Assembly (NCBI GenBank): GCA_008632985.1
Contig: QPGO01000034.1
Location: 62,001-126,000 of the forward strand
From: Psammoneis japonica
Lineage: Eukaryota
Reading direction: 5' to 3'
Length of the DNA: 64,000 nucleotides
Shown here piece by piece: positions 31,907-64,000 of the stretch. Position 1 is the first letter of the stretch, and each line of letters starts with the position of its first letter. Both the position numbers and the translations under genes were made by a program. The notes below the pieces were generated by a model. That model was given only the letters and a program-made list of their open reading frames with translations. It was not told the DNA's origin and did not search any database.

Positions 31907-31934
31907 TGTTGTTGTTGTTGTTGTTGTTGTTGTT
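31907..31934. repeat. (GTT)n microsatellite
   Basis: About 9 GTT units between the divergent NTT and coronin genes. Confidence 0.9.
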
Positions 31935-33726: not shown

Positions 33727-33845
33727 ATGTAAAGTTTCAGTTGCCTTGATTCCACGACGGGTCGCTACTGTGATTATTTTGTTTCGTTTCAACCTGCTGC
33801 TCTATTTCTTTATAATACTGTATGATTAAAATACGACGTGTTGCT

Positions 33846-40462: not shown

Positions 40463-43400
40463 ATGTCGTCAACGCCGCGGTCTGACTCTCCGACTGCGGC
40501 GGGCGGAATGGAGGCATTTTGGCGGGACGATTTTGCTCCGCTGCAGGCCGCAGGCGATGCGGTGCTCGCTGCGCTCCGTGAAGACGAGGAAGCTCCAGAT
40601 GCCGACCTGTACCGCCGTATCCTTTCGAATGGAGCTGGATCGCACCTGTATTACGCTCCGATAGAGGCCAGCACGTCGTCTTCTTCAGCAGCGAGCACCG
40701 CGTCTCCGGGCACCCGTCCGCGTGTGGCTCCGACCGCTACTCTGAAGCATCTGCATTCCGTCCCGCTGCCGCAGCCCCTGTCGCGTCAGCTGCGAGAGGC
40801 GAAATCCGTCAGCTTGATGGGACTGTTTCCGGAAGCTCATTTGGCATGGATGACCGTCGATGACAGAGTCTTCCTTTGGTCATACGACTCGGCTTCCATT
40901 GGATCGACTCAAGCGGGCGTTGAGGATCTCTGCGATCACCGTATGCAAAGTGGCCAGTCTATCGTCAGCGTTGGTCTTGTAAAGCCGAAGAAAGGTACGA
41001 TTGTTTCGTGTTCTGAACTTGAATACCTTTTATGTTTTTGACTGTTTCGTTAATCTTCTGTACCTCTAAAATCATACCTTACTCCATAGGGGTCTTCAAG
41101 GACGTGGTGGAGTGGTGTCTGGTCGTCACGACAAAGGAGGAAGCTATGCTCTGCGCTCTAGCTCGACCTCAAGTGGTTGGTGAAAGTATGAATGAAAATA
41201 GAGCTACACGCGGCAAAGGAGCATACCGTTTAGTTGCAACGCGGTACATCATTCCTACAGATTCTGTTCCAATGTACTCTGTGTGCGGGACACCAGACGG
41301 AAGAGTTTTCTTGGGTGGCCACGACGGTTCACTCTATGAGCTGGATTATGAAGGCTTTGTCGACAAAGCACAAGAGCAAAAGACCGCTTTGGATAAGGAT
41401 CTGGACGCATTCTACGACGGTGATGGTTCAACTAGTTCAACCGTAGGCACAAACGGACAAAACGGTGTGCTCGACAACATTGTCTCGGGAAGCAAGCGCG
41501 CCTTCTCCGCTGTGATGTCGCCTTCTGATCACTCAGATGGGTACACCAGACCAAACAAAGCTAGAAAGCTGAATCGTTCCCAGCCTGTCGGCTCATTTGC
41601 TAATATGTGGGTTCCTTCCCTCTTTGTCAGGCGTCATCAGCAATTCTCGGTGGTGGCCACAAGTCTACGGGAGGTGGGCCTATTATCCGAATGCTGCTGG
41701 ACGAGGAACGATCGTGTATTTACTCGCTCAGCTCTCGCGGATGGATCTGTGTATTTGATCTTTGTCCCAACTCAAACTCAGCGGACGTCAAACTCATGGC
41801 TGTGCTTGATACAACCAAGACCGCCCGAGCGTATCTGGAGGCTGTGTCTCGGGGAAGGATGTACCCTCCGTCCGTGTCTGGTGCAAACATCACCTTCACC
41901 GGAGATGCAGCGTCAGCCCAAGCCGGTGTAGGCGGAATGGAAGGTGCAAGGTCGATACTTAAGCTTGCGGATGCGGAAGTGCAGCGAGAACGAAGCAGCG
42001 GTCGAACTGGAAAGAATCTAAGAAACGAAGGTGTCCTCACTCCCGCATCAATTCACGTCGTCCCGAGACGAGAAAGTGGGCTCCTGACACTAGTGGCTGT
42101 GACATATGGAGGCTTACGTTACTATCTCTCATCATTATCGCTAACTGGACGAGGACAACAAGTTGCTAGTCGAACGAAAGCTGACCTCCTTGCCCCATCC
42201 AGGAAGTTCACACTTTGCCACGTTCGCGCCCCACCTCCGGTTAGTGAAAATGGTATGATTCAGGACCTTCCATCATTTGATTCAGCAACCAATGACGGTG
42301 TTGGTGGATTTACACCAAAATTGGTAGCTTTTGGAAGGAAGACCGCCAAAGTCGATGCTAGCTACTACGACAACGGTGTCTCGCTTCTTGCACTCGAGTC
42401 AGTCAGCGAACGACGGGACGGGTTCGCTTCTTCTTCATCGACTAGAACTCCGTCAACGTTTTCAAATGGTGATATTGTGATTGCAGCGACCCCTGACTCT
42501 GTCTGGAGGAAAAAAGATAAATCGCCTACTACCACGGGGGCGACAACGTCAACAAGCCAAGCGGTCCTCAGTGCCCCCGGCGGGATCTCGGAGACGCTCC
42601 ATAAGCCAATTACTACACTGTCAGACTTGTCGAATGAATCGCCACAGAGACTTCCGGGCGGGCGGGTCTGGGCCATCAGTTCAAGCATTGTACCTGATAG
42701 CCCTTCGCTGCTGTTGACGTTGAGTTCGCGAACTCCCTCCGACAGTGAGCTTGGTGTCGGTTTAGTCCCGGCCTACTTTCCACCGTCACGGGTTGGATCT
42801 CGCGCCGGAGAATCGTCGAATTCCTCTAGCAACAGACAGTCTTTGTCACGCAGTGTTGTGGAGTCTAGGAACCAGTCAAGCGCTTTGGTGGTTTCAAACG
42901 GAATTAACTTCTCAGCCCACAATCTCGGCATGATCGTTGCAAATTTCTTTCTGTCGCGTCCCATCCATGAAGGCTTGACAACTCAGAGGCTATCAACAGG
43001 TGGTGGCACTGCTGGGTCGAGAGGGCAGCCGTCTTACCGAATTTCGGCATGCTATGGCCACCGGGGAATAAACGTGCGGGGCAGAGCCAAAGACGCACCT
43101 AAGACAGTTTCTCGCTCATCCCGCGAGCCGTCTGGTTCTACTTCAAAAGCCGCTCGACTCAGCCCGTGGCTTCTGCGACCAGCTGTCGTGCCCTTGGATC
43201 CCATATCAGTACAACACGTCACCCCCTCAAAACGTATTGTTGCGTTGAATACAGGTGGACTCCACTATTTCCAGTATTCAACGATCCTTTCGAATCTCAC
43301 AGACGCAATTCTTTCGTCTGGGGCAAACATTGGGCACGACGAAAATATTACGCACTTCTTCAAGAGCTACGGTTACAAACAAGGGTGTGCTATGTGCTTG

Positions 43401-46400
43401 AGTTTGGCCGTTGGTTGCGGTCCAGCTGCCGGAACCTATGGAGAGGACCTGAAGAGGAAGGCCTTGCAGGCAGCCTTAAACCGAGGGTTGGTGCCAAGAC
43501 TTACTACTTCTGACAACACAGGCACAAGCATGACACTGGGAGAAAGACCGAGTTCAGATAGAGCGGTTCCCCAGGGCTACGAATTTCGTCCCTCGGCATT
43601 GGTTGGCGGCTTAACTTCTTTGTTCTCACGCCTGTTGCGCCCTATTTGGTATAAGCCGGTTGTTGTTGTCACGGAAGGACGGCCAATCGGAAAACGAGGC
43701 AACGATACCAGGACTAGCCCTGCAAGAGTCAAACTTCTGCTTGACGACATTGCGCTGGAAGAGGTTCGAAGGCCGTTGTTCGCTATGCAATCTCTGATGA
43801 AGAACGCGTTTTCTCCTGCCGTGAGCGTGGTTCCAGGAGTCCAGCGTCCCAACAGAGACGAAATGGAAGTGGAAAATGAAAACGCAAATGGTGGATACGA
43901 TCTTTTAACCAGGACTATGCAGCATCAAGGATTTGTCCGAAGTCAAATGAATGGAGCGTCTGGCTCTCAAGCTACTTTGACGTCAGCGGAAATGGACACG
44001 ATTGCCAGATTGGTTGAAGAGAGAAACTTGCATTCTCTTTATCGCCTACTTGCTCGGACAATCCAACTCCTAAACTTGCTCTCTCTGCTGAAACGGGCTC
44101 AGCTATTGACAGACTTGCCTGAAGTCGAATGGGGACTTGTGCATGGGCTCACGACATCTCAACTTGTGCAGACACGGAACGGGCAAGAACGTATTGAAAA
44201 CTTGCTGAATTCTCTGGTCACAAGTACTGCCAACACTGTCGCTGGTGTCGCTACTACGCCGTCTGCGGATTCTGATCTTCTTGCAAACCTTTTCGCATCT
44301 CAGTGCTATCTATACTTCTCTCCTGGATCCCGCCTAGCATATTTGGGATTTCGCGCGGCAAACGCAGCGCTGTCTTGTCCATCACCCTCTGCTCGTCGTG
44401 TGGCCCTTAGATCACAGGCACGTGAATTTCTAAAGCGTGCGGCTCGATACTGGTACAACCCCCAGTTGATCACGGGAAGGATGCTTCATTCGCAAGATTC
44501 GAAAAGCTATGACCAGATGGCACTTCGAGCCATGCAATTTGACAGCCCCGTGGCGAAAGCTGCTTTTGCACTGGCGCAGTTGGAGGAAGTTGTTGGCATT
44601 GTTGACGTTTGTCTGGAAACGGCGTCAAATTTTGGTGGACGTCGTTTCTTGCAGGGCCCGGAAGACGCCAGTGTTCCAGATGATGCAAAATCTCCCGAGA
44701 TGATGTGGTGGGAACACGGTCTTTACCACCGACGACGCGCGGAATCTGGTCAGAGCTCGACGACGGGAACTCCGTCGTCCACATCCGCTGTCGGGGCGGA
44801 CGTTACCGCTAAAGATGCCGTCCGAACGTGTCATGCCATCATTTTTCACCATTTATCGACCTTCTTGAACTCTCAGAATATCCAACTGGCTGAGAGCATG
44901 GTTTCATCCTGTGCTGCCTCCTCCGACAAAGAATTCCTTCATTCTCTGTATGAGCACCTGCTGAATACGAACCATGTGGCCACACTTTTGAAGATCAACA
45001 GCATCGAAGTTGAGAAGTGGCTCCAGACTTCCGTTGGCGACCCTAGTATGTTGTGGCGCTACTACACCGTCCAAAGGAAGAACGTTCAGGCAGGCGAAGT
45101 AATGTGGAGGCAGGCTCGTGATACCGACAAGAAAGCTTCTCTGGAAGAGCGCATAGAATTCTTGGCAAAAGCGCAAACTTCGTTCAAGTCTGCGCTGGCG
45201 CAAAACGGGTCATCTGGGATGGGGTGGGATCGTTCAGCTTCATTCAACCAGCCACACCATGAAGAATTGCGAGGACTTGACACGAAAGTGTGTGAAACTT
45301 TGGAAGTGGCGGTGCTACAGGACCGGATCTTGAAAACGGTCACAGGCTCAAGTAAGAGAGAAAAACTGACGGATGATCAATATTCAAGATTGAGCTCTAC
45401 CCTGGTTCCAGTTTCTGAGCTTTTCAATGAGTTTGCGGCTCCTCTTAGCCTGTACGACCTTTGCCTTTTGATCTTGCATTCATGCCATCACAATGACGCA
45501 AAGACGATCGAGAATTTGTGGAGGAGCATCCTTTGCGAGGAGCTTCTCCCGTGCACGACTCGCAACCCGGCGGCCTACAAGTTTCTTCAGAATCTAATGT
45601 CTGAATCTATGGTAGACGAGAGCATTTTTCTGGTATCTCAAGACAGTGATGGCGACACCAGGGCGCCGTTGTTTGAGAACGGGGACTGGATGAAACCTTT
45701 GATCGAACGAGTTACTTCTTTGGGTAAAGAGGTTTACGGAAAGGGAGCCGACTTTGCATTTCCTGTAGAAGCAGTCGCCACGAACTTGGAAGGTGAGTTG
45801 CCCTGTACGACCATATTCCCGTTGAGACGCGGATTGACCTATTTTCGTTATCTCACGCCTCCTCGTTACACGATTACAAGGATTACGCCAGGTGGGCCCT
45901 TCGTCGCAGCGCTGGCCACTTGAAATCCTAGCTGATGTCGGTGTGCCTTATTTCGTCATTTTGGACGCCTATGAGAGTATGGCAAATAAGGCAGACAAGG
46001 AGCTTATGGGCGGGATCGACGTCCAGAGACGGTAGGTTCCGTTTCGCGTCGTTCAGAGATTCATCCGTTGTTGTCCATGCTTCCGCCTCACAGTTTTGTT
46101 CATATATTGTCATATAATCGCCACGAAATATACGAGTAGGATGCAATATTTATCCAGCATAATCGAGGTGCTCCAAGAATGGGTTCGTGCAGCAGAAGCA
46201 TTGAGAAACGGGAGTGGTGAACACAAAAGTGCTCTAGTGGAGGTATGTTAAAGGGTTATTGATCATTGCGCAATCCTTTTTTCAAACAATTTCATACTAA
46301 CTCGGTTTCATGCTACTATATCCACCCCTTTCTTCATTGTCAGTTCTCACGTACGGCTATGTTGGCGTCCACTATCGACGACTACAAAACGGAGCTGGAA

Positions 46401-46490
46401 GGAATGATCGGGGACAGGGATTCAGGATTAGTGTCAAGAATGCTGCAGACACTTGACGAAATCAGTAGTGTGCTTGCTCGGATCGTCTGA
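40463..46490 (+). CDS. NUP155: Nucleoporin Nup155/Nup170-like, multi-exon; apparent 1-nt deletion near 41630
   Basis: MGLFPEAHLAWMTVDDRVFLW, VGLVKPKKG, GRVFLGGHDGSLYELDY, SLEERIEFLAKA, SELFNEFAAPLSL. Confidence 0.9.
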
Positions 46491-46682
46491 CGCAAGGGAA
46501 TTGGTACTTGTAGGACAATTTGAATTCACTTGAGGGAGGGAGATTGTGGGAGTCTTTCTGGCCTGTAAATGAAATAGTATTTGGAAGTCTCAATCGTGCA
46601 AATGTTTGTAAGGATGTAAACAAATCTGTAAGATCCTGGAGTCTCTATGGTTTAAAATCTGTATTACTCCAATGTGAACCAG

Positions 46683-47491
46683 TTAGGACAGTATGCACTG
46701 ATCGTCAGCGTTGAAACTGCCGCTGGAAGGGCAAGTCTTGAGCTTGCCAATTCTAAACTTCTTCCAGACTCTCTTTCCATTCTTAGAGTGAAAGTTAAAA
46801 TCTTCTGTACAGTCGCAAGAACCACCTGACTTTCTTAGAATACTCCGACTGCCTCCCGGATGCAGTGAGAGATATTCTGTTGCATCATAAATCGTGTCCC
46901 CGCAAACGAGCCACGCTGACTCGGGCGTACAGTGTCTCTTGACTTGACACATGGTAAACTCGTCTTCTCTTTGTTCGTCGTGGCGACAAAGAGGGAACAT
47001 CTTGGTCTCCCTCTGCCTCCTTGACATCGATAATCGTTTCAGCTTTGATCGACAGCTTGTGCATTCGGGTTCGCCGCAAGTGTCATTGCAGCATGGGCAC
47101 GCGTCGCACCCAGCTATCGGTGAGCCGACCATTGATGAGTCTTCGCTATCAGATACTTCAGATCCTGCTCTGTCGACATCGTGGAGATGCCCTTTCAAAC
47201 CTTCTATTATTTGGTGACACATGAACTCTCTATGTTTTCAAACCCGCTTATCGACTTCACGACTGGTTGAATAATGACTTCACGACGTGGAGGTGTTGGG
47301 TGTCGGAATTTTCGGTTTTGAGTTGAATAATGGCGTTGCGGTGAAGTTACCGGTAACTGTAGTCGTGGTGTTCCTGCGTGGCTGGGAATGCATGCATGCA
47401 TGAAGTTTCGTGTCAGCGAGTGTTCGACAGGTGATGGCACGCAGTTGCGCGTGCCGGAAGGCGGCGCAAGGGTATGTTCTATATCAAGCAT
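46683..47491 (-). CDS. Cytochrome b5-like heme-binding domain protein (5' part joined via probable frameshift near 47209; start uncertain)
   Basis: FTMCQVKRHCTPESAWLV..IYDATEYLSLHPGG..DCTEDFNFHS. Confidence 0.8.
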
Positions 47492-47822
47492 TTAAGATAC
47501 ATATGTTGAAATTCCGTCGGAGAAACGTCATCTGGTACTTATCGTGACGCAATATGCGAATTGCAAAATGGCTTGCCGGCGTGAAGCCACGGGTTCTGTA
47601 CTGTAGTTCAACACACAGACGGCCACGCAGACAAGAACACGCGCGAACAGAACACAGCCACGTCGTAATTTGGCGCGCGGTTGTTGTTGTGGCCACTGGC
47701 CATCAGTGGCCACGTTGATTGAAGGACGCATGACTGAAGATCGGCGATGCGTTGCGACTTACGGCCCTGTCTCTAGTCCAGGTAAAGAGCTAACGGTACT
47801 GTAAAAGAAGGATGGATATGTG

Positions 47823-49516
47823 ATGGAAGAGCACAAGACGACGCGTCTCTTGCTTCCAAGGCATCCATGGAGAATTAGTTTGTTTTCCTTGTGTTGGGTG
47901 GCTTTTCCGGTACTTGTATCGAGTTGGATTCTAAATCAAAATCACGAGAGAATAAGCAGATCGTCGTTTTTGACAACACCGGCAGGTGCGCTATCTTTCG
48001 GGCAAGGACATGTCCACGGTTTGCTACGTGCTTCTATAAGTGGTTTAAATACTCCTCTGATTGAAGCTATTGCTGCTTCGGGAATTGATGACCAAGAGCT
48101 AGATGATGTTGTACAAGCTATTGGTGGTGTGTGTCACGAGTTTGGATACGATTGTTCTGCAGATCCTCGTTATAGAACAAGAGTACCATGCTCTCCCCAT
48201 TCCGTTAGTGGTGCCACTGGTCGCGTCATATTACTAAAGACGTCGCTGGCTGAAGACTTTATCTTTGATCTTCAATGCGCCATTTCTGAGCAGATGGACC
48301 AGCTGTTGTACTCTGATAATCCTGCGATAAAGCAACCCGTTCTGGTTTCAATTCGAAAAGACATTGGGTTGATCACAGGCGACAATTTCAATGAGGCTTT
48401 GGCGACAATCGTTGAAGAGGAAGTAAACGAATACGACATGCTCCTTCCCGTTGCAGAGGGCCGAGTGTCAGATGAACCTACCGGCATGTGCGCACCCACG
48501 TTGCACGTTGAATTGGACGGCGGGCACGTCGAGAATCCTTCAAATTCGACTACAATCTGGGACACGAGCACTTTACTCGTGTTTGACGATCTAGTTAGTG
48601 ACGACCTTCGAGCCCGACTCCTGGACATAGTCTTGGGGAAAATAAACGTGAATCCAGACTTGCCACTGTGGGACGATGCGAAAAATGGGCCAGATCCACG
48701 GAGATGGGTACGTGTTTCTGTGAATGCTGAAGCCAGCCGCCACAATACAAATTTTCTATTTGCTGCACTCAACATTGGATATGGCATTGAACTCGGTCTT
48801 GCTCTGCTTGGCCACTTTCTCAGGTACGAGGAGGGCTACTGGATATGCCTGAATCACACAACAGCGACAGCATGAAGGATGACGAGGGCGAAGGAACGTG
48901 TTGGGGACTGAAAGACGAAGGAATCGTTGACTTGTGCTTTCATCAACATGCAGCCGTTCAAGAGTTTGAGTCGATTTTGACTTTGTTGTTTCCCAATTTT
49001 GTGGTTTGCCGACTTCCGGAAGCTGTCTTTGGTTCTTCCGTGTCACCTTTGACAGCAAATGCACCGACATGCGGCGATCTCTTCAACTACCACATTGATG
49101 GCGATCCAAATCTCACTCCCCCGTCACCATGGACAGATGTTTTTGGTAGATATCCGAATCGTATGAAAGGGAAACCGCGTTTCATGAGCTGCCTAATATA
49201 TTTGAATGAGGAGTGGCACGGGGAACAATGGGGGGCTCCTACGCGGTTCTTGGACATCCCCACAAATTCTCATTACGATGTTTTGCCGCGACCCGGTCGT
49301 TGCGTCATGATGGATCAAGATATAAGTCACACCGTGGTACCACCCACAACGAGCGCTGGGAAACGCCCTCGCTACTCTTTGGTTTGGAAGCTGGTGTTGC
49401 ACCCGAAAAGGAGAGACCAGGACATGACAATCCGTGCTGGAAGCACAAGCAGGGTGTCGCATTGGCCTGAAATCACATCGTTTGGGAGTGCCACACGTGA
49501 TGAAAATCTGGGTTAA
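47823..49516 (+). CDS. 2OG-Fe(II) oxygenase (prolyl 4-hydroxylase-like), one intron (~48708-48823)
   Basis: HIDGD, MSCLIYLNEEW, GAPTRF, DQDISHTV, RYSLVWK. Confidence 0.82.
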
Positions 49517-49871
49517 GAGAAGCATTACGCAAAAGAGTCTGTCTAGAGCGGGTCCGAGTGTGCCGATGTAGTCTAGAGGGTGCAATCGCCGTCTATGAGA
49601 AGCGACAGCATCTCCTTTGGCTGCACGGAGATTTTCACTGTTCATTGAGGCTTCAAAAGTGAATTGCACGCTACAAAGCGTTCCGAGTATTTGGTTGGCG
49701 TCGTAAAACAGGCTTAGTCTCACGGGCGATGCCAATCCCAGACTCGTCATTATCAACCGACAATCGGGAGTATCAATGCAATCTTGACATTGCACTGGGT
49801 ATAAGAGTCTCAAAGAAATCGGCGTAACCATTAATCACACTATAGATAATTAGAATTCGGATGCAGCAATA

Positions 49872-51179
49872 TTAGGATGACTCCCCACCAGTTCCCTTTT
49901 CTTTGTCCTTTGCTTCGGTTGTCCCCATCACCTCGGCCGGTTTCGCATTCTTCTTCTTGTAGTATTCCTCCATTGCCAGCTTCTGTCTCTTTGTATCCTC
50001 TTCTGCAAGCTTCTGATAATAGCTGAGTTTCTCCGATGGAAGAGATCGCCAGCGTTGGCCAACCATCTGCGCCAGGCTTTTAAATCCGATTTTGCCATGC
50101 GTCTTGCGATGTGGACGCCTCTTGCTGTTGTCCCGTACTAATGGTCTCTTGAGAGCTCTACATTCAACTGCACCGGTTGCATTTGCCGACAGTTGGTCGT
50201 CTTCTTTGCCTTCGTCGTTGCTGGGAGCAGAATCTTTCTTCTTTTCACCGTCAGATCCTGTTCCGTCACCTGGGTCTGTCTTGTCCGCTTCGTCAGACAT
50301 TTCTCTAAGGATACGTTCCCGTTCCTCCGAGAAGAAAAGGTTATATGCACTGAGAGGACGCCGTGGCATATCGGCTGGCTTCTTCTTTGGGGCCTTCTTC
50401 TGTTTCTTCTTGTCTTTCGGTTGAGTTTCTTCTTCTTCGGTGCGGGATGCAACGTTGTCTCGATCTCGCTTGAGGTCCCGATTTCCCGATGCAACTGAGG
50501 ATTGACCCACGCCCAGGGATGGGAAGGAGCCCATCATACTTCTAGACATGTTATGTTCAGCATGGTACCGAAGCTGCTCACGCGACAGAGCTGAGGCTCC
50601 CCCAAGGGAAAACGGCGGTCCTAAGACTCCTGCATGCGTCTGACCATAAATACCGCTCCCTGCCTGAAGCGGAGGTCGAAAGGAAGTAAGAGCTCCTTGT
50701 CGCGCACGCAGCCGATAAAGTGTTTCGTCATCGAGATCAGTTATTGGTGTGGTTCTCAACAAATCATTTAAGAGCTGCTGTCTGTTGGAAGCCTGGACTC
50801 GAGAAAGCAGCAACCTCGTCAGGAGCTCATCTTCAGAAGGACCGAGAGCAGCTGAGGAATGGGCCAAAGCATTCATGTAGGGAGAACCACCTACAGACGT
50901 AATTTGAGCCACACGTGACGGGAAGTCCATATTTCTACTGAGCAGAGCGTCGGTGTTTTCACCCTGATTGGGCATTTGAGCTGCTTGGGATCGCTGAAGC
51001 AAACCGCGTTCGTTGGACGAGTCCGTCCCTTGCTGTGCATCGCCACCGGTACTGTGCTCATGTGGCAGCGATTGTTGTTGACTGCTTGTCAACGATAGCA
51101 AGTGAAGGAGATGTTCACGTCGAAAGGAGTCTTCCGCTCGTTCATCTCCGCCGGAGGCAGATTCAGTTTTGTTCTCCAT
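49872..51179 (-). CDS. HMG-box protein (diatom type with split box)
   Basis: MPRRPLSAYNLFFSEERERI ... RPHRKTHGKIGFKSLAQMVGQRWRSL..YYQKLAEED. Confidence 0.9.
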   Translation of the reverse strand: MENKTESASGGDERAEDSFRREHLLHLLSLTSSQQQSLPHEHSTGGDAQQGTDSSNERGLLQRSQAAQMPNQGENTDALLSRNMDFPSRVAQITSVGGSPYMNALAHSSAALGPSEDELLTRLLLSRVQASNRQQLLNDLLRTTPITDLDDETLYRLRARQGALTSFRPPLQAGSGIYGQTHAGVLGPPFSLGGASALSREQLRYHAEHNMSRSMMGSFPSLGVGQSSVASGNRDLKRDRDNVASRTEEEETQPKDKKKQKKAPKKKPADMPRRPLSAYNLFFSEERERILREMSDEADKTDPGDGTGSDGEKKKDSAPSNDEGKEDDQLSANATGAVECRALKRPLVRDNSKRRPHRKTHGKIGFKSLAQMVGQRWRSLPSEKLSYYQKLAEEDTKRQKLAMEEYYKKKNAKPAEVMGTTEAKDKEKGTGGESS

Positions 51180-51841
51180 TGCTATTTTCGATCTTCCTTC
51201 GGCGACCAACACGTACTTAGGGCCAGCTTAGGCTTACTACTTCGATCGACAGCAAGATCAGAACGCTAAAAGGCGCAGGCGGGGTCAAAAGCACCGATGT
51301 CACTGCATGCACCGACCGCCACCGTTAGTTTGAACGCGTGTGTTTCGATGATTTTTAGTCCTCCACCAACAGACACCCGCGCTTGTTAAATAGTTGCAAT
51401 TGCCCGCTTGAGGGCTATTATAGAGCAGACACACTGACACGTTAGAGTGACAGCAGATCTCACACGAACATATAAGTAAGATTACCGTTAAATAGAGCTA
51501 TCTAGACCATTGACCGCTATCATTGGGCATAAGCTAACACCACGAAAGGGCAATTGACAAGACTGATGCAAAGCACCATCAAGGTACAGTACAGTTAGTA
51601 ACGGACAGAGGAGAAAAAATATGCTTTCATACATCACTGGATTATCAATTTTGATTGCAACACGTCTAAGACAACGAGAGCAATGACGAAATGAATTACT
51701 TCATGATTTAATACATTCATTTGCTTCTGATTTCATACATGCAACCAACACTCATTGCCCGAACCTGCCACGCACGCACTCACCTTTTTCAAATTCTCTT
51801 GTTCTTCCAATGTGACATGGTGCTCAAGAGATGATGCATTG

Positions 51842-51843
51842 GA

Positions 51844-51875
<32 letters not shown>

Positions 51876-51876
51876 A
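51842..51876. repeat. (GAAA)8 microsatellite at the edge of block 3
   Basis: Directly visible. Confidence 0.95.
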
Positions 51877-53205
51877 GGGATGAATGATGGGATCAATCAA
51901 TCAATTTTCTCTTCTGGGAAGGACGGGGAAGCAAGCTGCCATTTTGCCACTGCTTTGCACACAAAAAAAGCGGCCAGTGGAGGGGGTGAGCATGTGGTGT
52001 GCACAGTGCTGCAATTGATGACCTGGTCAAAAACCTGGAATTTCAACTGAGCAACTTCTTCCTGCAGAGCTGCTGTCCCCAATTGTCCCCTCCTGTGCTG
52101 ACATTGAGTGAACTCCACCAAGCAACTCTGCACAGCAGCTTCCTCTCAGGAGCGGCCAAAAAAAACGCAAAATGATGCCAAAGAAAGTTGTCCCCACACT
52201 CAACATTTCAGCACTTTCCAAAAAACTTCTGCACACACACCCTGCATGATTGGCAAAAGAAAGAAGACAAGGGAAACAATCTGTGAGAAAAAGAGCCATG
52301 AGCCGCAACCACTTGGCTCACAGCCTGTGTGTGCGGTGCGTGGTCTTTTGTTCTCTTGTTGAGATGACATCACACACCAGGGGCACACATGAGCAGCAAA
52401 GTCCAGGGATTCCCAAGTGCAGAGCATCATCCAAGGCAAAGCTGCTGAACCAGACCAGATGAGGTGCACTCATCTTGCACTGCAGCAAACTTCTTCTGTG
52501 TGGGGCAAGCAACAACCACTCAGCTTGAACAACCCAACCCCAAAGAAGGTTTTGTTTAATGTTGGTTCACCACATCTGAAATTTGCATGCTTGCATTTTT
52601 TGGCTTTTGGCAAACATTGGATGTCACAACAATCTGCCAAAAAACATGACAAGAGTGCATGTCTCCAGCCTCAAAGGTGCACACATCATCACAAAAAGAA
52701 CAGTGTCACAGTTGCTGTTTGGCATTGTTCTCATGACACGTGGGTCAATGCTGACTTCTGCATGTGTGTCTGGTCCATGCACACAAACACTCCACACACA
52801 ATGTCAGCCACAATGCAGCACACCACTGTTGCTGCTCTGCAGCACCCTCTTTGCCTTTGCAGTTGCATGGAGCCATGTCCATTGTTTTCATTTGAAACCT
52901 GTCTCATTGTCATTGCAAGACAGCTGCAGCTCCACACAGTTGTTTTCATTGCAGACAACCCAATCTCTTTGCGTTTCATCATTTTTTGTACTTTTGTGCT
53001 GTCAATTTTGCACATTGTCATTCATGTGAGAGACACTGTGCATGTTGTTTTTTGGATGCTTTGCACATGTCATTTTTTGGTTGCTTTGCGCATGTTGTTT
53101 TTTGGTTGCTTTGATTGTTCATTCAAAATTTCTGCCAAACTCCTGTTTGCCCATTTGTTTCCAATGAGAGTTGGTGCCATCTTGAACAACAACTTGTTTG
53201 TTGAT

Positions 53206-53540
53206 TGCTGTGGTGCTTGACATTTTGCACTTGTCATCTGGAGCTGCCTTCTTAGAGGCTGCCTCTGTTCATCCATTTCAAACTTGCACAGCTGATGTTA
53301 GCCCCCTCTGTGGAGTGCATTTGTCAGACAAACACAAGCATGCAATCAATGCACTGGAGGATGCATTCCTGTTTTGATTTGTTTGCTGTGATGCTCAGTG
53401 TTTTGTGTTTGTCATCTGGAGCTGCCTCAGAGGATTCCTCCTTTTTGTCCATTTCAATTTTGCAGCAGCTGGCATTGGATCCCTCTTTGGAGTGCATTTG
53501 TCACACAAACACAAGTGCACAATTAGCGCAGCTGCAATGG
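53206..53540. repeat. Diverged tandem duplication, period ~178 bp
   Basis: tgctgtg.tgct..ttgtcatctggagctgcct..tccatttcaa..ggagtgcatttgtca.acaaacacaag starting at ~53206 and ~53384. Confidence 0.85.
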
Positions 53541-54304
53541 GCACATTCTTGGCTGCTGCAGCTGCTAAGAAAAAACCGGGACCAGTGGAGTTTTCCACAG
53601 GTGGGGGCACTCCTCAAAAAAAAACATTTTTGGCCAGCATCAAGGGTGTCTCCTCAAGTCAAGAGGCTCATCTGCTCAATGAACAAACATCATTCAAAGA
53701 AGGGCAACCCCAAAACTTGGCACAAGCAATGTCTCAAAACTGCAATTGACCCCAGGATGTCCCCACAACAAGGTCTTGTGTGGTTGAGCCAGTTGACCAC
53801 AGAAGATCCTGAAACCCAGAAGGCTGGTCTTCTGTTTCACCTTGTTCATCCCAAAAATGGCATGGACAGCTCAAATCTGTCCAATGACAAAACAACTCCA
53901 CAAGATTGTTGCCACCAGTTGGTTCAATGAAAATTTTGAGAGTGAGAGTTAACAGCAAGTTGCAAAATGTCCAGGCAACAAGAGCAACAATCTGTTGATG
54001 TTGGCACTGGTGCCACCGGGAATGTTGTTTTTGGATGCCATGAAGAACTGTCTTGCTGCTGTTGTGTTGTGCCATTTCAACAGGGGAGTCGGCATGCTTG
54101 TTGATTGCACCCATGTGAAAAACTCTTTCTTTGTCAATTGGTGGGGCACAGGTGATGATGAATGAATGATGCATTCCTTGAGCCACCCAGCTGCAGTGTT
54201 TGTTCTTTTTGATTGGACTTGTTCAAGCCACTTCTTTTGGCATGAACAACAATTGGGGCACATGTCTTCATTGTCAGAAGGAGCTGTTGTCGTGTTGCAA
54301 TTGA

Positions 54305-56780
54305 GTGTTCTTGGCGGGGTTTGAGATCATTGCAGATGCCATGTCTCAATGCCCAGACTTGAGAGCAGTCTGCAAGTGCAGCAGGGAGTGGGAGGGGCTC
54401 ATGGAAAACAAGAGAGGCAACACTCTTGCACCATGTGCAAAGGAGCTGGTTGCTCCAATGAGCTCTGGAATTGTTCTGGCGTTGCCTCACTCCACCAAAG
54501 AGTTTGTCATTTGTGCCGCTGCAACAAGCAACAATCCTGAGTTTTTGGACAAACCATTTGACAAAAAAAGCTGCACTGGGGAGAGTCATTTCTGTGCCAC
54601 CATGCTGGAAAGTTTTGAAGACAGCCAGGTCAGCATTGGTGATTTGGGTCAGCACCAACCTGATTTGTTGACCTGTGACACAAAAAGGACCACGTGGCTG
54701 CCTTTTGGCACAATCATGAAGGACAGCAATTGGAGAGTGAAAATGCTGTTGGAAAAAAAGAGCAAACATGAAAATTTGGCATTGAAGGGATTGCACATTG
54801 AGTTTGCACACGACACACCACAAAGTGCCACATTTTGGGATCAAGAGGGAATTGGCTTGAAACAAACAGCTGTCAACCCATTTAATCAGAAGGTGCTCAG
54901 AGGAAGCAGGTGGACAAAAAGCTGGATTGTGGCCCAGTTGTCAAACAAAGCAAGTTGGAGAAGTCCAACATTCATGAAAATGATGGTGGTGTTCTTCATG
55001 ATGACAAGCATCATCATGGCAGGGGCAGATCCTGATGACTTGGATGATGACACAGCAAAAGGATCAATCCTTGCATTCCCAAACTTCTTGCCAAGCAAAA
55101 TTTCTTGCAACAGGTGCCTGTTCCAGCAGCCAGGGTTGCAAAACAGTTTTCCCAGTTGGTCCACACAACCAAGAAAAGATGCTGCCATTGGCATCATTGC
55201 ATGATGCTGTGATTTTTTTGGCAGTCCAGCCATTTTGTGTTGTGTGTTCTCTTGACTGACAAGTGAGGACAGTGAAATTTTTTGCTGGAATCAGGTGCAA
55301 TCATTTGTGCATTTTTTTCCAAACCGGCACTTTGAGTTGGTGGAAGCTGTCACAAATGACAGAGCATTGTTGCAAGAGCAATTTTCTCAGACAATGCAGC
55401 CAAGAACAACTTTTCAAGATCCTGCTGGCCCACATTGCTGATTGGCACAAGACAGCTCCCCAACTGCAACAGCACTTGTTTTGCAGAAGGGTGCATCATC
55501 ATGATCTCATGTGAAAGAAGCCAAGATGGAAACAGATTGCTCTCAGATGAGTTGGGTGACAAAGACAAAGCTGCAGAAAAGTTGCTCAAGTTGCAGACAA
55601 AAGGAAGAGAAGAAGGAAAGGTCAGAGATGCATGTTGCAGTTGCCAGAAGGAGCTGTTGAAAGCTGTTGCTGCATCAACCAAGCAATGATGATGATCTTT
55701 GTGGCCTCTGGAGCTCAAGACTTGGGCCAACAGTGCCGTGATCTAACAAGAAAGGCTGGTCACTGAGCAAATGCACAATGATGATCCAGCACTGTTGAAG
55801 GTTGCAAAATTTGTGCAGATGAAGCCAAGTTCATGGGGTTGCAAGAAGAAACGCCCTTGCAACTTAGCAGGACATGTTCTGCACTTGTTTGGTTGCTTTG
55901 CTGGGCAAAACTCTGGCTGCATGTTGTTTGAAGAGTGGTCTGCCAAAAGGACCAATGCATCATGGAGGGGCTGCCCCATGGACCAGTGTGTTCAACTGAA
56001 CAAACATGCTGCAAGGAAACCCAACAAAGTCCAGGCCACAGATCAAAAAGTCATGAAAAAGATTGAGTGGAAGGCTTGTTTGATTTGCAGCACAACACAG
56101 ATTGTGGAAGTTGAGAGATGGAGTCTGGAGGAGATTGACGGTCTTCAAAAAAAAAAACACAAAAGATTGTTCATTTTGTTGGCTGCACTTTGGACAACTG
56201 CCATCAAGTCATTTGGCACAAGATTGTGCTGAGTGCAATTTCAAGATGTGGTTTCCAGATGTTTGGCAGGGGTTGAAAGGAAATGTGTTGTCACCAATGG
56301 AGATCAACTTGCTGACAAGCAGCCCACCTGCACAACTCTTGCAAACAGACAAGAAAGATGCTGCATGTTTTCATCCCTGGCCAATGTTCTTCATCATGTT
56401 GGAGACTTGGGAACAAGAGACTGCATTGCATCTCACATTTAAAACATCTGCTGAACAGATTGAAGCTGACAGCAGCTGCACATTGTTTGCAAGGAGCACA
56501 CTGCATGGCCATCAAAGGGAGCTCCCGCCAAGAAGCAATGAAGGTTTTGCAGCAGCAGTTTGGATTGAGCCATTTCCTTGGAAGCAGGTGGTGAACATTT
56601 GATGTCACAACATGCAATGCTGGCTGCACAACTGTTTGTCATCCAGCAAACAACAACTGCTGTGTTGCCTTGTGCTGTGGATGGATGTTTGACTGAAGCT
56701 GGCTTTTGGTCACCAACTGCTGCATGTCAAGGCTGCTGGGTTGGGTTGGCATCATTTGTGCCCAAGGCTGTCTGAGTTGA
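54305..56780 (+). pseudogene. Degenerate long ORF of an unidentified repeat element; C-terminus resembles a papain-like/C39-type fold
   Basis: Protein-like frames with TGA stops and shifts; CCMFSSLANVLHHVG (~56360) and CVALCCGWMFD (~56660). Confidence 0.35.
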
Positions 56781-57199
56781 TCCAGGAAGCCATCAGAAGT
56801 GCAAGGAATGCATCTCATTGCAACCCAATCAGCCAACAGGAACATTGGGATCAAACAAGAAATTGCACATGGCACCAAAGCCACAATGGTGCTGACACAG
56901 CTGCACCATCCTTGCAACTTGACTTTAACAGAAGAACCAAGCATTTTTTTTGTCTTGCAGATCACACACCCTTTCTTTCATCTTCAGAGGGGATTCCATC
57001 AAGGCGTGTTTCCTGTCACCAACTGCTTTTTCAGCACTCTCTTCTCTTAAAAAGAATTTTCAAACATTCCAGCAAATGACTGCGCTGCTTTGCCAGATTG
57101 TCATCATCCACAACCAAAGCACCAGCTCTCTGGTTTTTTGTCTTCATCACTCACTCCCACAACAGCTGCAGTTTGCATTTCTTGACATGCAGGTGATTC

Positions 57200-60100
57200 A
57201 ATGCAGCGGGCTTCAACTCCATCAACCTCTCCTTTGCCACATCCAGGCACTCTGATGGCATGGTCAAACACAACTTTCTGTGTGATCCCACTTTTCTGCA
57301 TGAGCACCTGTCAACAGTTTCTGTGTGGAATTCTGCATGAATTTTTGCCAAAAACTTGTCACCATGACAATCCCTCCACTCTGCCGCAGGCTGGCCCCAC
57401 TGGTGATCCTCAGCCAGATCCTCCACCTGACAAGGACACTGCTCCATCCACTCCAACCAGAGCTGGATCAGGAAAACCCAAAAGCTCTTTGCTCAAGGAG
57501 ATCACCATCCATTTTGAACTCACCTCCTTCAATGTTTGCATGTCCACGGCATTGGCCATGGGTCATGCTGTGATTCTCAATGCCCTCCAACAGAAAGCCT
57601 CTCATGACCCATTGATGAATGAGATGACTGTTGTGTTGAACCGGGGTTTGAAAATTCCCAAAATCAATGCAGTTGAGTGGACTTCTGGTCTCACCCACTC
57701 TCAGCACTTTGGTGTGCATTGCATTGGTGGTTCTCATCGTTGCTCCCCAATGTTTGTCATTGCTCACTGCATCCACACCTCACCAGATGTCTGGAACATC
57801 CTGTTTGTCAACAAAGTCTTAAAAGACAATGGAGTTTGTGTGCACCGCCATGAATGGGATGAGACCAGTGTTGATCTTTCTTGAGTCACCTTGCTGGTTG
57901 ATCTTGCGCCAAAGCATGGCCCAGTGGATTTAGCCCAACAATTGTTGATGGCTCTTCTTCCACCATGCACTTGCTCAAGTCACACACCTCCCTCCAGTGC
58001 CATGGACTGCACCAAATTGTCATTGAATGAACCTGTTGGCAGATTCACCTTCTCCTCCCCAAATTGCCAGACCATGCATGACCATGTGCCTTCAATGCCA
58101 ACAGATGCTCCTTTGACCAATGTGGAGGCAACTTTAATGAGTGCACCCAAGCAGCCACCAAAATTCAGGTGAGCGCAATCAGAACATCAGAGACATGCCT
58201 TGACACTGTGCAATTCCAAGTTCATCACAGCTGCACGTTGGCAGTGAAATGCTCTTTTGCACCATGGGCAACTCACTTGCTTGTCATCAAAGAATGCCTT
58301 CACTGCCCCGTACAAACTGGGTGGGACAGTGCTCACATCATGCAACTCCCTCTCCGCAAGCCACCAAACTCAACTCAAAGACCCACTGGGATGCTGGTCA
58401 ATGCAGATTTTTGACGGAAAACACGGCCATCAAGTCATGTTTGTTTCGTGTTGCCGCATTTGTTCCAACTCTTTGTCATTGGCAGGCAAGACAACCGCGT
58501 GCGCTCAGCAAGTGGCTTTGCTCTGCCAGCAAGGCCAAGTGAATCCAGACCCTCATAGAGAGCCTTTTGCTGCACCAATCTGACTTGCACTGTCGAACAA
58601 TTCTTGGATGACTCAAACCAAGAAGTCATTCTTGTTGGCAATTTCAGCTTGGATTTCTGCCACAATTCCAACACACTTGCTTCCATGGCCCAACAGTTTA
58701 ACATGTTGGATGCCATGCACCACCAACATGAAGACTTTGAATTTTCTGCTTGTGTTCAAGGTTCCAGATGCCTTGATTGTGTCCAAGCAACTCCTGGTGC
58801 TTCAGCTGCTGCAAGACTCTGCGGGTGTGAATCTTTTGGGTGCAGAACATTGTCAGATCACCAAGCTCATTACATGGATTTCAACATGGTTGCTTTGTTT
58901 GGAAACCCTTCCGTCATTCTGCCAAGATTCCAGCTCCATGATCTTCAAGCATCTTTGCCAAAACATGTGACTGTGCATGTCTCAAAGCAGTTGATCCTTT
59001 GATCACAAGTCAAAATGTCCTTGCCGGAGCAGAGGCCCTTCTTCAATCAGGGACTCCAAATCATTGTCTTGCTGACAGATTGGACCAAGACATGCTCCAG
59101 TCATTGCTGTCAGCAGCTGAGAAATGCAAATGACACAAAGAACCAGAAAGGTCTGTCAAATTGGCTGGCCAACCTCCAGAAGCAAGTGTTTGTGTCATTG
59201 AGGATGATGGCTGTGTTCCGCAACCACAAGGATGTGGTCCCCTCCATTCTCAGAGCAAAGCACAAATTGTCAACTTCGTTTCTCCTCCCTGCAATGATTC
59301 ACGAATGTTCAATGGCCCCACATTGTGCACTTGTTCGGAGTGTTGCCAAGTTGTGAAGGACAGCCAGAAGCACCAAGACACTGAACGTGATGCGCAAATT
59401 GCTGAACTAGAACTCAAAGGCACCAAAAAGTCCCAGGCTCAGGCTAAAGTTCTTTGCAATTTACACTGTGCAGAAGAAACACAGTGAGTCTTCAGAAAAA
59501 TTAATGCCTGCAAGAAGAGAGAGGGCTCCAGTGTAAAAGACCATTCAAGTCCCTGCAAACCCAAACAAAAATCAAAGACGTGCAAAACTTGAATGACAGT
59601 CAACACCCCAGAAGATGCAGCCGCAGCGCTGCAGTCCAGGAACCAGCGTCATTTTGGCCAAGCTCATGGTGCTCCACCAACAGTTCCTCCTTCATCTGTT
59701 GACCTGGGTTGCAAAGGCAATGCCACAATGGCAGAGCTCATCTTAGATGGCGAACATGAGACTGGTCAGCTGAAACTTGCTGCTTCTTTGCTCATCCAGC
59801 ATCTTCAGAGACATGCCCCACCTGCAGTGCGGAACCATGTCTCATCTGACATCTTGCTCTCCAAACCAAAGACATGGTTCGAATCTGCCTCCACATCTCT
59901 GAAGTCAGGATTGCACCTTGGACATTGGAAAGTGCTGTGTGCTCCTCATTCTCATGCCAAAGATCTGGACTCCCAAGGCAATCCATCCTCAAAGAAAGAA
60001 CATCTGGATCAAGTTCAGCAGACACTGTTTGCAATTTGCCTCAACCTCATCAACTGGGCTTTGAAGTGGGGCTGTTTGTGTGACCATTGGAAAGACATTG

Positions 60101-63100
60101 CAAACACAGTGTGATGTTCAAGAAACCAGGCAATGACAAAATCCACCGACTGCAAGTCACGCACATGTGCAAAGCAGATTTTCAAATTGTCACAGTGTCA
60201 AATGGCAAGAATTGGCTCAGCACATGGAGAACCACCAAGTGTGTGATCCTGGCACACATGGATGCCATTGCTTCTTGTCTGCTCAGACTCCAGTGTTTCT
60301 TGAGAACCTGATGTTGGAAATGTCCCAAGCCTCTTGCAAAACTCTGCTGATGAGTGATGATGATTGCACCTCCTGTTGTGATCGAAATGTTCCTGCAATT
60401 GTTGGACCATGTTCCCAAAGTGATGGAATGGACTTTTGTGTGGTTGAAGTGAACATGTCTGCCCTGCACCATGCTGGACACTGGCTTTGGACCTTGTTGG
60501 GACTGGCTCAGTGGAGTCATGCTCACACTGCTGCACAACCCCTTTGCAGCACAGGTCAAGGCAGCAGGAATTCCCCATGGCATTGGAACACCCCACACAG
60601 CTGCCTGTTTGACATCTTTGATGCAAGAGCCATGGGATCACACTTTGAAACTCCAGACAGCAAGTTCTTTGTCCAAGTTTACAATTGGGGACATGTCAAC
60701 AACACGTCCAAACAGGTCAACAACTTTTGAGCAAGTCCGCAACCGTCTGCGCTTGACTTGTCCTTTTCTCTCCAACAGGATGATCAACTTTGGTGTGATT
60801 TGCTGGCTGGACACTGCAGGACACAAACTTGAGTTGCCAAAGTGTTCCTTTCACGCAGTTGAATGGGACTTTGCTGAGTGCGGCAAGTCTCACATCCGCC
60901 CACACCATGACAACCCAGATGTTCAAATCTTCTCAGCAGACTGGTCCACGTCTTGGTCCAGCAAACAAATTTCAGCACATGCTCTGCACAAAATGCTCTG
61001 ACATTACGTTGCACCAATCAGCACCAGAAAGACTCAGTTTCAGAAACTTCTCACCAAGAGCAACACCACAGCTCCATTCCTCTGATCTTGTCCCTTTGAC
61101 CAGATTGAAACATGGCAGTGCTTTCACGTGTGCCACTTGTCTTTGATGACTCATGTCCAGCCAAACTCAACTTTCTACCTGAGGAGCTCTTGACTGTTCA
61201 ACAAAAAACAATGCGGGCTACATTTGCCAAATGCGGGTGCAACAGAAATGTGAAAAGACTCGTCCCATGTGGTCCTCAATCCCTTGGCAGCAAAGGACTC
61301 CAATTGTTGGACATGGAACAATGTGTCACTCAATTGCAACTCTTGTTGAAACACTCACAAGGTGCAACAACAAACCTCAAGTTGGGAGAAGATCAACCTT
61401 GCAAAAACTTGCACATCACGGTTTCCTGGATCCAGCTGAACACAGGAATGGGAGTGAGTTTTTTGTGGGACATTGATGCAGCACTGCCGCATGTGGAATC
61501 TTGTTGGTTTGCTTCAGTCCAGTCATTCTCACACAGGATTCAAGGAAGAATTTACTTGACACAGTCCAGCATGCTCCCTCTCCAATGTGATGACAATCAG
61601 GGCATCATGGACGTGGTCCTCCAATCTCAACTCTTTTCTCATTGTGAAATCAGATGGACAAACTGCTGTTGCTCATGCTTGCAGGTGCTGTCCATGTCCA
61701 ACATTGCTCTGTCCAATGGTTTGACATTGGACACAATGAAGGCAGCTGGTGACCCTTGCTTCAGAGCAGTGTCAGCACTTTGAACATGTTGAGCAGTGTG
61801 AACCAGGATTGAGAGTGTGGGCCACATGGAAGAAGTTTTGTGTGTCCCTGTGCCATCCAAAATCACAGACACTGAAAGAACCTCTCAGAAATTGGTTGGC
61901 ACCACCATCCACCAGGATGCGCATGCAAGCAACCATGCATTTTTCTCCCTTGGAGGATCATTTGTGCACCAGGTCTTCCTCTGGGTGCAACACATTTTGA
62001 GTGAATGGAACCAGAACAGACACACCATCACAGAACTGGAAACAGTGCCGGTCCCATCCAAAGAATCATTTCCGGCAGAACTTTCCATGACAGACGACAG
62101 TCGATGGACACTCAATCTCCCATGTGCTGACTTGTCTGATCCACTGATTTCTCGGCTTCCTGATGCATTCCAAGACATGCTGCAATCCTTGCCACAATGG
62201 GAGTCAACGTTGTTCAAAGACCTCAAGTTTCATGTGCCCCTTAAAATGCTGCTGGTTCAATGCTTTTTGTCCTCGACATTGACTGCAGGGAGTGATGGGT
62301 CTGCAAATGAAGGTGCCACCTTTGGTTGGACGATTGCATTGGCAGAACCCCTGCTGGTAGATTGTGCCGGACCAGTTTTTGGAAGACAGCCGTTGTCTCA
62401 CTGACCAGAAGCATGTGGAATTCTCTCTGTTTGCCACTTCATTTACAGATTCATGGAACACTGCCACATGAGAGAGTTTCCGGATTTGGACGTGCATTGC
62501 AACAACAAGGCGGTGGTGTCTTGCTTGGAACAGATTGCTCTTAACCTGTCGGCTCCATCTCCTGGAGACCAACTCAATGGCATCTGAGATTTTCACATCT
62601 GACACAATGGAGCCAATGCCCTTGCCTCCAACTGGGACATCATGAACAAGAGATTGCACTTTTGCATGGCAATGGAGGAATCCCACAAATCCAATGCATC
62701 CCCATTTCCTCCACAGGCAAAGTGGGTCAAAGGACATCAAGATTGACATGCCCCGGTTCACACACTTTCACTCAACGCAAGAGCAAACACATGAGCAGAC
62801 CAGACAGCCGGCACCTGCCAAGGACATTGCAGTCAAGATGCTTCAATGGTTCTGCCCTCCCTCACTGCCACTTGCATTTGAGTTTGCAGGATGGCACATT
62901 GACATCAGGCTACAAACAGCAAGTCAGGCATGCTGCCACCGCTCCGCAACTTTTGGAGTGCATTCTCAATTCTCAAGTGCAGTCAGTGGCATCCAGAAGT
63001 GATCAACCTGACAGATTGCTTGGGATGCTCATGCCATTCTAACAAAAAGGCATTCCAAGCAACACATTGAAACAGCTGAGCTTGTTCACAACCTTCTTCC

Positions 63101-63850
63101 TGCCAACGAGATGGTCAACAGATGCAATTCCATCCAACCTCACCATTGCATTCTCTGTGAGCATCTGATGGAGGACAGGGATCATGCACTGTGGTGTCTG
63201 CACAATGAACCCTGGCACAGAAAATTTTTGCAAGGATTGCAGCATTGTTGCAACCAGATCAACACGATGCCAACGCGGCATGATTTCTCATTGGGTTCCA
63301 TTCAAGCATGGTTTGACAGTGAGATGGTGCGCCCAGACGATTTAGACTGCCACTGCAGAGCCCTGTGGCATGCTCAATCAGATGTGGGATGGCAGCAAGT
63401 GTTTGGTGGAAGGCACTCCACTCTTTGGAATGTGGTCCAGTTGGGGTGTTTGTGTGATTCAGGCATTCTTCATCAGCACCAAGAAGAGAACAAACAGCCC
63501 CTGAATTGGACCATTCAGATGCGTTTGTTCACATGGAAACAGTGGTGGAGTCTGTGGGAAGAGCATGACCATCATGTGCATGGACACAGTGCAGATTTGA
63601 GGACATTGTCTCAGAGATGAAAGGTTGAGGCCAAATTGACAGCTGCACACAACAAATGCCAAGAATGCCTGGCCAAAGATTGAGGTGTCCTGCTTGATTC
63701 TGTGGAAGATCATGAACATTTCACAACAACGCACACACAAAATTGGATCTCAATGGTCCAACCCAGACTGAAAGAAAGTCTCAAAGAAGCCAAAAAAGCT
63801 GGTGCTTTGCAGCACTTGCACCATCACCAGTTGCTTCCATCAGGCATCTC
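57200..63850 (+). mobile_element. Decayed non-LTR retrotransposon (Ambal-like LINE): partial ORF1 (~57330-57900), ORF2 with APE endonuclease (~58170-58910), RT (~59900-60900), RNase H (~62280-62750) and CCHC finger (~63145-63200)
   Basis: APE: DPLGCWS, TTACAQQ, VILVGNF, GSRCLDC, LSDHQ. RT: SGLHLGHWK, KKPGNDKIHRLQVTHMCKADF, SCCDR, TGQGSRNSP, GHVNN, LELPKC. RNase H: GSDGS..TFGW, WVKGHQD. Finger: CILC..EDRDHALWC; QSDVGW. Confidence 0.9.
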
Positions 63851-64000
63851 CTCAAGGAGATGCTGACTCAAGCCAATTGCATTTGCTTCTGCCGCACCCC
63901 TGGCAGGGTGTGCTGGAGGTGTGGGTCAGCTGGTGCCAGTGTTGCTGGGCAAAGGTGCAGCAGCACTTTAAATTGGGTTTGGGCTTTTTTCTGTGTGATC

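Follow-up and report, generated by a model that had tools for sequence, protein, structure and literature searches.

TpA Loss in Repeat DNA of the Diatom Psammoneis japonica: A T-A-Pyrimidine Signature and a Candidate Adenine Deaminase

Introduction

Hypermutation at TpA has been described in the rhizarian Bigelowiella natans, where two viral inserts undergo TpA>TpG/CpA changes and an ADAT2-type deaminase has been proposed as the agent (Mettrop et al., bioRxiv 10.64898/2026.01.13.699255). In mutation-accumulation lines of that organism the process runs at a roughly 1000-fold de novo rate, in some lines only. The main text of the preprint does not deal with context, flanking bases, trinucleotides, polymerases, CpG or diatoms, and neither a TAY motif nor tandem hits appear in it. 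Here we analyze a similar process in the diatom Psammoneis japonica, starting from a 64-kb stretch of its 91.4-Mb, 597-contig genome (positions 62001-126000 of contig QPGO01000034.1; hereafter the window). Window coordinates carry no strand unless one is given. Three blocks of the window, ~8650-10980, ~13000-15900 and ~51750-64000, are nearly devoid of TpA, have parted with most of their CpG and have gained CA and TG.

Several other systems invite comparison. Repeat-induced point mutation (RIP) of ascomycetes likewise destroys repeats by dinucleotide-specific transitions on both strands; its change is C>T, turning CpA into TpA. Laboratory DNA adenine editors were evolved from TadA. One of these, ABE7.10, prefers YAY, and guide-independent off-target edits by ABE8e show TAT (PMC11983105), while native TadA requires UACG in an RNA loop (PMC12296453). 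ADAR2, an RNA editor, has UAG as its hot spot (PMC10661471). Our literature search for a diatom description of a TpA process, from whose coverage most subscription papers fell outside, returned none, and the Bigelowiella preprint alone was relevant.

Results and Discussion

Flanking Bases of the Mutated Adenine

A first-pass annotation of the window had tallied by hand the TA sites remaining in the third block, and had derived from them a TAY target and an order of mutation TAT > TAC > TAR. Survivors alone cannot fix a motif, because each TA presents one target per strand, so that a pyrimidine at +1 and a purine at -2 are equivalent, and because survivors could be newly made. To see which strand had changed, we set mutated copies against TA-rich natural copies of the same elements. 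The first set comprised 11 reference groups, with 3695 of 4698 events kept. A larger set, partly of the same elements extended to full length, comprised 31 copies from outside the window: 18 of a 4.7-kb long terminal repeat (LTR) element, E1, 12 of a 6.6-kb copia element, E2, and one of another copia. It was scored only at columns where two TA-rich natural copies agree, and 5826 of 6861 events were kept. We dropped events whose flanks had changed, overlapping TATA, gaps, and any outcome besides TA, TG or CA. Copies were picked by hand, 20 of 43 matched places for E1 and 20 of 150 for RVT_2; loci L151-L153 were left unused.

The change is almost purely A>G at TpA. In the 31 copies, TA>TG was seen at 2774 of 15879 sites (17.5%), AA>AG at 165 of 23423 (0.70%), CA>CG at 166 of 20132 (0.8%) and GA>GG at 88 of 21841 (0.40%), with CG>TG at 228 of 15595. 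Transversions made up 70 of the 2844 changes at TA (A>C 17, A>T 53). The pattern is thus of the Bigelowiella type, in which A>G/T>C likewise occurs nearly only at TpA: 2774 transitions against 70 transversions, with A>G outside TA at 0.4-0.8%. The C>T change at CpA that defines RIP is rare, at 102 of 20257 (CA>TA) against the 2774 of 15879 for TA>TG, and the polarity is the reverse of that of RIP.

These rates speak directly to error-prone gap filling of the Pol eta type with its WA motif, as in antibody hypermutation. Pol eta targets AA as well as TA and makes a substantial share of transversions at A. Two Pol eta-like genes are present in the genome and AA>AG is slightly above GA>GG, but AA>AG lies 25-fold below TA>TG and is no higher than CA>CG. 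Since AA is barely hit and transversions at TA are few, the Pol eta explanation fails, and we see next to no chance that it is correct.

At asymmetric sites, the TAY strand was mutated 759 times and the TAR strand 304 times in the larger set. The first set gave 415 against 161, or 168 against 68 with one copy per family. LTR pairs, which require no reference, gave 55 against 21. Of 34 loci, 31 had such pairs, among them a spurious 68% match (L134) that was retained, and 224 of 235 partner dinucleotides were TG or CA. The mutated A favours a pyrimidine at +1.

We fitted a competing-risk model with local exposure to the 5826 events, of which 1951 were mutated, at 452 distinct reference sites. 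Its +1 rates relative to A were 4.66 for C, 4.08 for T and 1.25 for G. At -2 a base other than A had a rate of about 0.5 relative to A; at -3 the rates relative to A were 0.46 (C), 0.66 (G) and 0.38 (T), and at +2 they were 1.6 (C), 1.06 (G; 0.78-1.38) and 1.29 (T). The gain in log-likelihood (twice the difference) was 556 for the +1 term alone and 88 for the -2 term alone, and separate fits of E1 and E2 agree. On the A strand the preference is therefore 5'-(A)(A)T-A-Y, the A before Y being the base mutated, with C or T at +1 about 4-fold over A or G and A at -2 and -3 worth about 2-fold each. We are close to certain of this signature.

The copy-based spectrum thus upholds TAY over TAR and parts company with the proposed order in one respect, TAT over TAC. 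The fitted T/C rate ratio at +1 is 0.89 (bootstrap over the 452 sites, 0.64-1.11), and where the two compete at ATAC/GTAT sites the TAC strand was mutated 208 times and the TAT strand 96 times, so that the order TAT > TAC was rejected. ATA/TAT does disappear first, the reason being that A at -2 contributes as well and doubles the rate. A bonus for TACG was also rejected: its p value of 0.027 on all events became 0.21 with duplicate sites removed, and the effect was absent in the larger model.

ADAR editing shares with this process A>G with U or T at -1. The two differ in that the present process seldom hits TAG (+1 G 1.25 vs C 4.7) and in that the changes here are in DNA, after insertion and on both strands. 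An ADAR-like editor was rejected, TAG being poor here and UAG the ADAR2 hot spot (PMC10661471).

Surviving TA Sites in the Window

An automated count found 39 surviving TA sites in 52557..63970 (first 52557, last 63969), with 25 Y-TA-R, 12 one-sided and 2 R-TA-Y sites, in agreement with the hand tally of about 40, 25, 12 and 2. Within 52000-64000 the Y-TA-R survivors are TTAA (13), TTAG (7), CTAA (4) and CTAG (1), the one-sided ones TTAC (6), CTAC (3), GTAA, GTAG and ATAG (1 each), and the RTAY ones GTAC (2). As had been noticed, the one-sided survivors are nearly all TAC (11 of 12 TAC/GTA, 1 TAT/ATA). In block 1 survivors of the same kind prevail, 7 of 8 being YTAR, and AA runs are still abundant, AA not being depleted in the blocks (ratio 1.12). 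The 25/50/25% division that had been taken as the context-blind expectation proved too generous, since the background of the window divides 18/52/30% (YTAR/one-sided/RTAY) and five TA-rich transposon stretches (n = 698) give 99/348/251, that is 14% YTAR.

Counting NTAN in affected and unaffected DNA showed the enrichment on which the annotation had staked its case. The three blocks pooled (n = 55) contain 36 YTAR, 16 one-sided and 3 RTAY sites and the rest of the window (n = 1746) 311, 903 and 532 (YTAR in 36/55 vs 311/1746; chi2 79.4, p 6e-18). Survival ratios in the blocks, both strands taken together, rise from 0.009 for TAT through 0.048 (TAC) and 0.094 (TAG) to 0.21 for TAA. Y-TA-R sites are the last to go because each TA has two targets, one per strand, and at Y-TA-R both are poor.

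The survivors could instead be new TA made later from CA or TG. When rates fitted on the first set of other loci were applied with one exposure fitted to the total, they predicted 38.8/15.1/1.2 survivors, where 36/16/3 are observed. Some classes exceed prediction in the way that new TA would suggest (TTAA 18 vs 12.9, GTAA/TTAC 10 vs 5.4, RTAY 3 vs 1.2; CTAG, at 3 vs 8.7, falls below), and CA>TA does occur, at the 102 of 20257 given above. However, the preference comes from direct measurement on sites that young copies and LTR pairs have lost, and the class counts of the window agree with what those rates predict. Newly made TA can account for a minority only and is refuted as the main cause, for which we consider it very improbable. 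That class counts match rates from other loci supports the YTAR sites of the window as true survivors.

Same-Strand Bursts of One to Three Bases

A feature that goes beyond the earlier observation is the occurrence of bursts on one strand. A non-TA adenine at -2 was co-mutated (ATA>GTG) in 34 of 706 cases on the hit strand and in 3 of 736 on the other (from 16 copies), and an adjacent 3' A (TAA>TGG) in 16 of 229 and 5 of 479, respectively (from 13 copies). No bystander excess was found at +2 or at +/-3 to 5 in the 31 copies. Double losses at TATA fell on the same strand (TGTG or CACA) 100 times and on opposite strands 14 times, where 32 and 49 were expected when independent hits were simulated at the fitted rates; the same-strand excess was consistent at 20 of 21 distinct sites. 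Between adjacent hits from 3 to 400 bp apart we found no same-strand excess. Single events therefore span 1-3 bases of one strand and are many and independent, without coordination further away.

Two other signals were discarded. Long strand-coordinated tracts were rejected when a weak early signal within 10 bp (55.6% vs 50.7%, 15/500 simulations) reduced to the TATA doubles at 2 bp. In lightly hit regions, hits 6-10 bp apart seemed to favour opposite strands (4 of 25 on the same one), but a few recurring LTR sites were largely responsible, and this signal was dropped.

TGTG and CACA are both present among copies at 15 of 30 TATA sites. Such differences in product at the same site are hard to reconcile with a sequencing or assembly artefact, for instance base-calling errors at modified bases. 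Only one run, X1, which may be the assembly's own sample and whose library type is unrecorded, holds block 3, and this would favour an artefact. Against this, Logan contigs of X1 carry the TA-less sequence, with 0.91 of sampled words of 52001-61000, a figure that, given the possible common sample, is not independent support. In Bigelowiella, Illumina data yielded de novo calls of this very change, and Sanger sequencing bore out 19 of the single-nucleotide mutations (bioRxiv 10.64898/2026.01.13.699255). We give an artefact hardly any credence. The six long X1 contig pieces listed inside block 3 differ from it by 0-7 letters each, and runs X2 and X3 contain almost none of block 3. At a surviving CTAA (window 59445-59446) an X1 contig has G for A (TA>TG), which may be an allele, an assembly error or ongoing change.

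Repeat Domains and Their Relation to CpG

The mutator is limited to domains of repeat DNA, where it changes A:T to G:C nearly only at TpA, on both strands and after insertion of the element. This restriction, another likeness to Bigelowiella, where the changes are confined to foreign or transposon-like DNA, is seen in the window itself: block 3 is multi-copy, while the single host genes retain TA. Bigelowiella differs in being a rhizarian with de novo rates known for viral inserts, and its TpA is mildly depleted there (Rho 0.45).

Within a copy the damage is one unbroken domain, and where its edge lies differs from copy to copy. In E2 copies (L135-L147, L154) it runs mostly from the 5' LTR side inward, and in E1 copies one end almost always escapes over its terminal kilobase. 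LTR twins can differ, one retaining 3 TA and its partner 17. Domains would thus grow across the element to boundaries specific to each copy and could take one LTR while leaving its twin, which sets the process apart from RIP a second time. This suggests that the guide is chromatin position and not sequence homology alone. One E2 copy (L147) has a mutated interior between two LTRs that are nearly spared. A 23-kb stretch with nested repeats (L031-L033, G000:C265:60001-83065), namely an element resembling a long interspersed nuclear element (LINE), E1 and another element, has largely escaped TA loss, although members of these families at other places are hit.

The loss of TpA does not stem from methyl-CpG decay, because CG can stay untouched and distance to CpG has no effect. 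One copia copy went from 282 to 97 TA while its CG went from 378 to 369, and some loci are TA-less yet retain most CG. Across five distance classes, proximity to CpG left TpA hits unchanged (observed/expected 0.89-1.11). CpG loss is a separate, slower process. It affects the three blocks too (ratio 0.16) and has a context bias of its own, CGA/TCG being most depleted (0.08) and other CGN at 0.17-0.21. Duplicated C5-methyltransferase copies (L263-L265, on C301 and C297) are TA-erased with CG largely kept; further methyltransferase genes (L258-L262) are intact, among 27 matches in all.

LTR pairs 99-100% identical with few hits, and half-mutated young copies, suggest that the activity is recent. 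A metagenome search with the copia reverse transcriptase found no locus among 80 with an 800-base window of TA observed/expected <0.2; this is uninformative on distribution because 4 of the 6 search peptides contain Tyr (TAY codons), which selects against mutated copies.

Candidate Agents

The best explanation as a whole, to which we assign a probability of about 0.52, is that a TadA/ADAT-type enzyme would turn adenine into hypoxanthine by deamination where a small patch of DNA is open, with G fixed in its place at replication. Like TadA and the adenine base editors derived from it, the process makes A>G only, with T at -1 and a pyrimidine at +1 (PMC11983105), and bystander edits within so narrow a span are in keeping with a deaminase. 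The genome encodes ADAT2-like (C26) and TadA-like (C38) genes, both ordinary-looking; the TadA-like nuclear gene has named homologues from Cylindrotheca, Amphora and Phaeodactylum, in keeping with a pennate diatom. The process works like that of Bigelowiella and shows the motif of a TadA-derived DNA editor; membership of the TadA/ADAT family is a candidate reading, and an enzyme of this kind appears the likeliest agent at roughly even odds. It differs from TadA and its editors in lacking a bonus for G at +2, in not accepting C at -1 (CA>CG 0.8%) and in its higher rate with A at -2/-3.

Several observations weigh against a deaminase of this family. There is no sign of the UACG that native TadA requires (+2 G 1.06, 0.78-1.38; TACG p 0.21 on distinct sites). 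TadA-8e needs single-stranded A (PMC12296453), yet there is no long strand-coordinated tract here. The deaminases found form an ordinary set (a dCMP deaminase, a TadA-like protein with an N-terminal extension, an ADAT2-like and a RibD-like protein, and two A_deamin loci), and their inspected frames contain no chromatin-reading domain. The 5826 model events rest on just 452 distinct reference sites in three families, mainly two, and inside the window the direction test against the 70% relative L032 was not significant (17 vs 11, p 0.34). Finally, damage to the paired T would leave the same sequence behind as damage to A.

The annotation had preferred a TadA-like footprint, with its UAC context, to Pol eta. 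Its case against the WA motif has held (AA>AG 0.7% vs TA>TG 17.5%) and TAY fits the TadA-derived editors. The full UACG of native TadA is lacking, the choice passed over Pol iota, and the deaminase itself is a reading of the pattern.

The short bursts would also be expected if a TpA-specific nick or base removal were filled, over a patch of 1-3 bases, by a Pol iota-like polymerase placing G opposite template T. Opposite T, Pol iota inserts G in preference to A (PMC3031609), and such a patch would account both for the purity of the A>G change and for bursts of 1-3 bases on one strand. A Y-family protein is encoded in the genome (L156, G000:C22:252628-253293), and by sequence match, with no tree, the solved proteins closest to it are Pol iota (96 bits), kappa (57) and eta (51). 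However, the parts of the polymerase article available to us report no restriction to TpA (PMC3031609), so that a second, TpA-specific trigger is required. T:G repair at methyl-CpG is not that trigger, because hits do not rise near CpG (0.89-1.11 over the five distance classes). A bystander 5' of the main site, at -2, is awkward if synthesis starts at the lesion. Pol iota also makes T-opposite-T errors, and the corresponding TA>TT is seldom seen and no commoner where exposure is high (12 vs 1707 transitions). On balance we regard the polymerase patch as unlikely. Further Y-family genes of the genome are Rev1-like, Pol kappa-like and two Pol eta-like; for Rev1, Pol kappa and one of the Pol eta-like genes these are putative labels based on motifs.

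If the lesion lay on T, a modified thymine in R-T-A (an oxidised T, for example) would pair with G or be repaired to C. T>C on one strand is A>G on the other, and all counts fit a T lesion equally. A Tet_JBP search of the genome gave no match, which is weak evidence as the controls were silent too, and the agreement with TadA-derived editors in -1 T and +1 Y would then be fortuitous. We consider a T lesion quite improbable.

Returning to the deaminase, we propose tentatively, at somewhat less than even odds, that diatoms carry a natural chromatin-guided DNA adenine deaminase that permanently silences transposons through edits in (A)(A)TAY, in a one-strand window of 1-3 bases, and that the same system operates in Bigelowiella. 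If so, it would be an old genome-defence pathway of the SAR group (stramenopiles, alveolates and Rhizaria), with polarity reversed relative to RIP, and a natural chromosomal DNA adenine editor would be relevant both to genome-defence biology and as a tool. The likeness to engineered adenine base editors narrows the search for a natural DNA-editing enzyme. The one published description of a TpA process comes, in its main text, without mechanism or flanking motif. The signature (an obligatory -1 T, 4-fold for a +1 pyrimidine, 2-fold for A at -2/-3, no targeting of AA, same-strand bursts of 1-3 bases and no long tracts) can be compared directly with candidate enzymes in vitro and with the 231 Bigelowiella mutations. 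Pol eta and a UAG editor of the ADAR kind are excluded by it, which leaves two candidates that this genome encodes and that are open to test. With copies of the same elements that are intact, half-hit or saturated, the genome is a ready study system.

The two A_deamin (ADAT1/ADAR-type) loci are separate (L161-L164, on C40 and C79). An OTT_1508 deaminase was rejected as a candidate: its single match (L257, G000:C92:43593-43721) is weak (31 bits, cut-off 27) and lies in an 80-codon frame in a TA-erased block, apparently dead.

Other Features of the Window

Block 1 (8650..10980) retains 8 TA sites, 7 of them YTAR as noted, and block 2 (13000..15900) also retains 8, of which 4 are YTAR. Block 3 (51750..64000), a TpA/CpG-erased repeat domain by base counts, extends about 14.5 kb beyond the window end (loci L034 and L035). 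Per kilobase across its 12 kb, TA observed/expected is 0.01-0.09, where unaffected kilobases show about 0.42-0.73.

Block 3 contains a multi-copy repeat at 52745..57280 with 66-71% matches on other contigs, and four aligned copies from elsewhere are likewise TA-erased. A six-frame Pfam search of this repeat gave no match to any family. It is followed on the + strand by a decayed non-LTR (LINE-like) retrotransposon at 57289..63990, seen with tblastn and blastn; the LINE-like label is a putative one based on endonuclease, reverse transcriptase and RNase H motifs, Pfam being silent (no match in nine window frames and four L032 frames). Genome matches for window 59700-63900 number 46. L032 is a TA-rich relative, 70-75% identical, and at its 102 aligned TA sites the window reads TG or CA 70 times and TA 7 times.

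Between the blocks, 15950..51700 is background without TA loss and holds the host genes Nup, WD40, Dcc1, HA-domain, HMG, FHA and BT1; a Protein Atlas search with an HA-domain gene returned no result. A (GAAA)n microsatellite lies at 51841-51880, near the left edge of block 3. Summed contig depth reaches 2324 at 63400-64000, where a high-copy repeat ends near 63890-63990.

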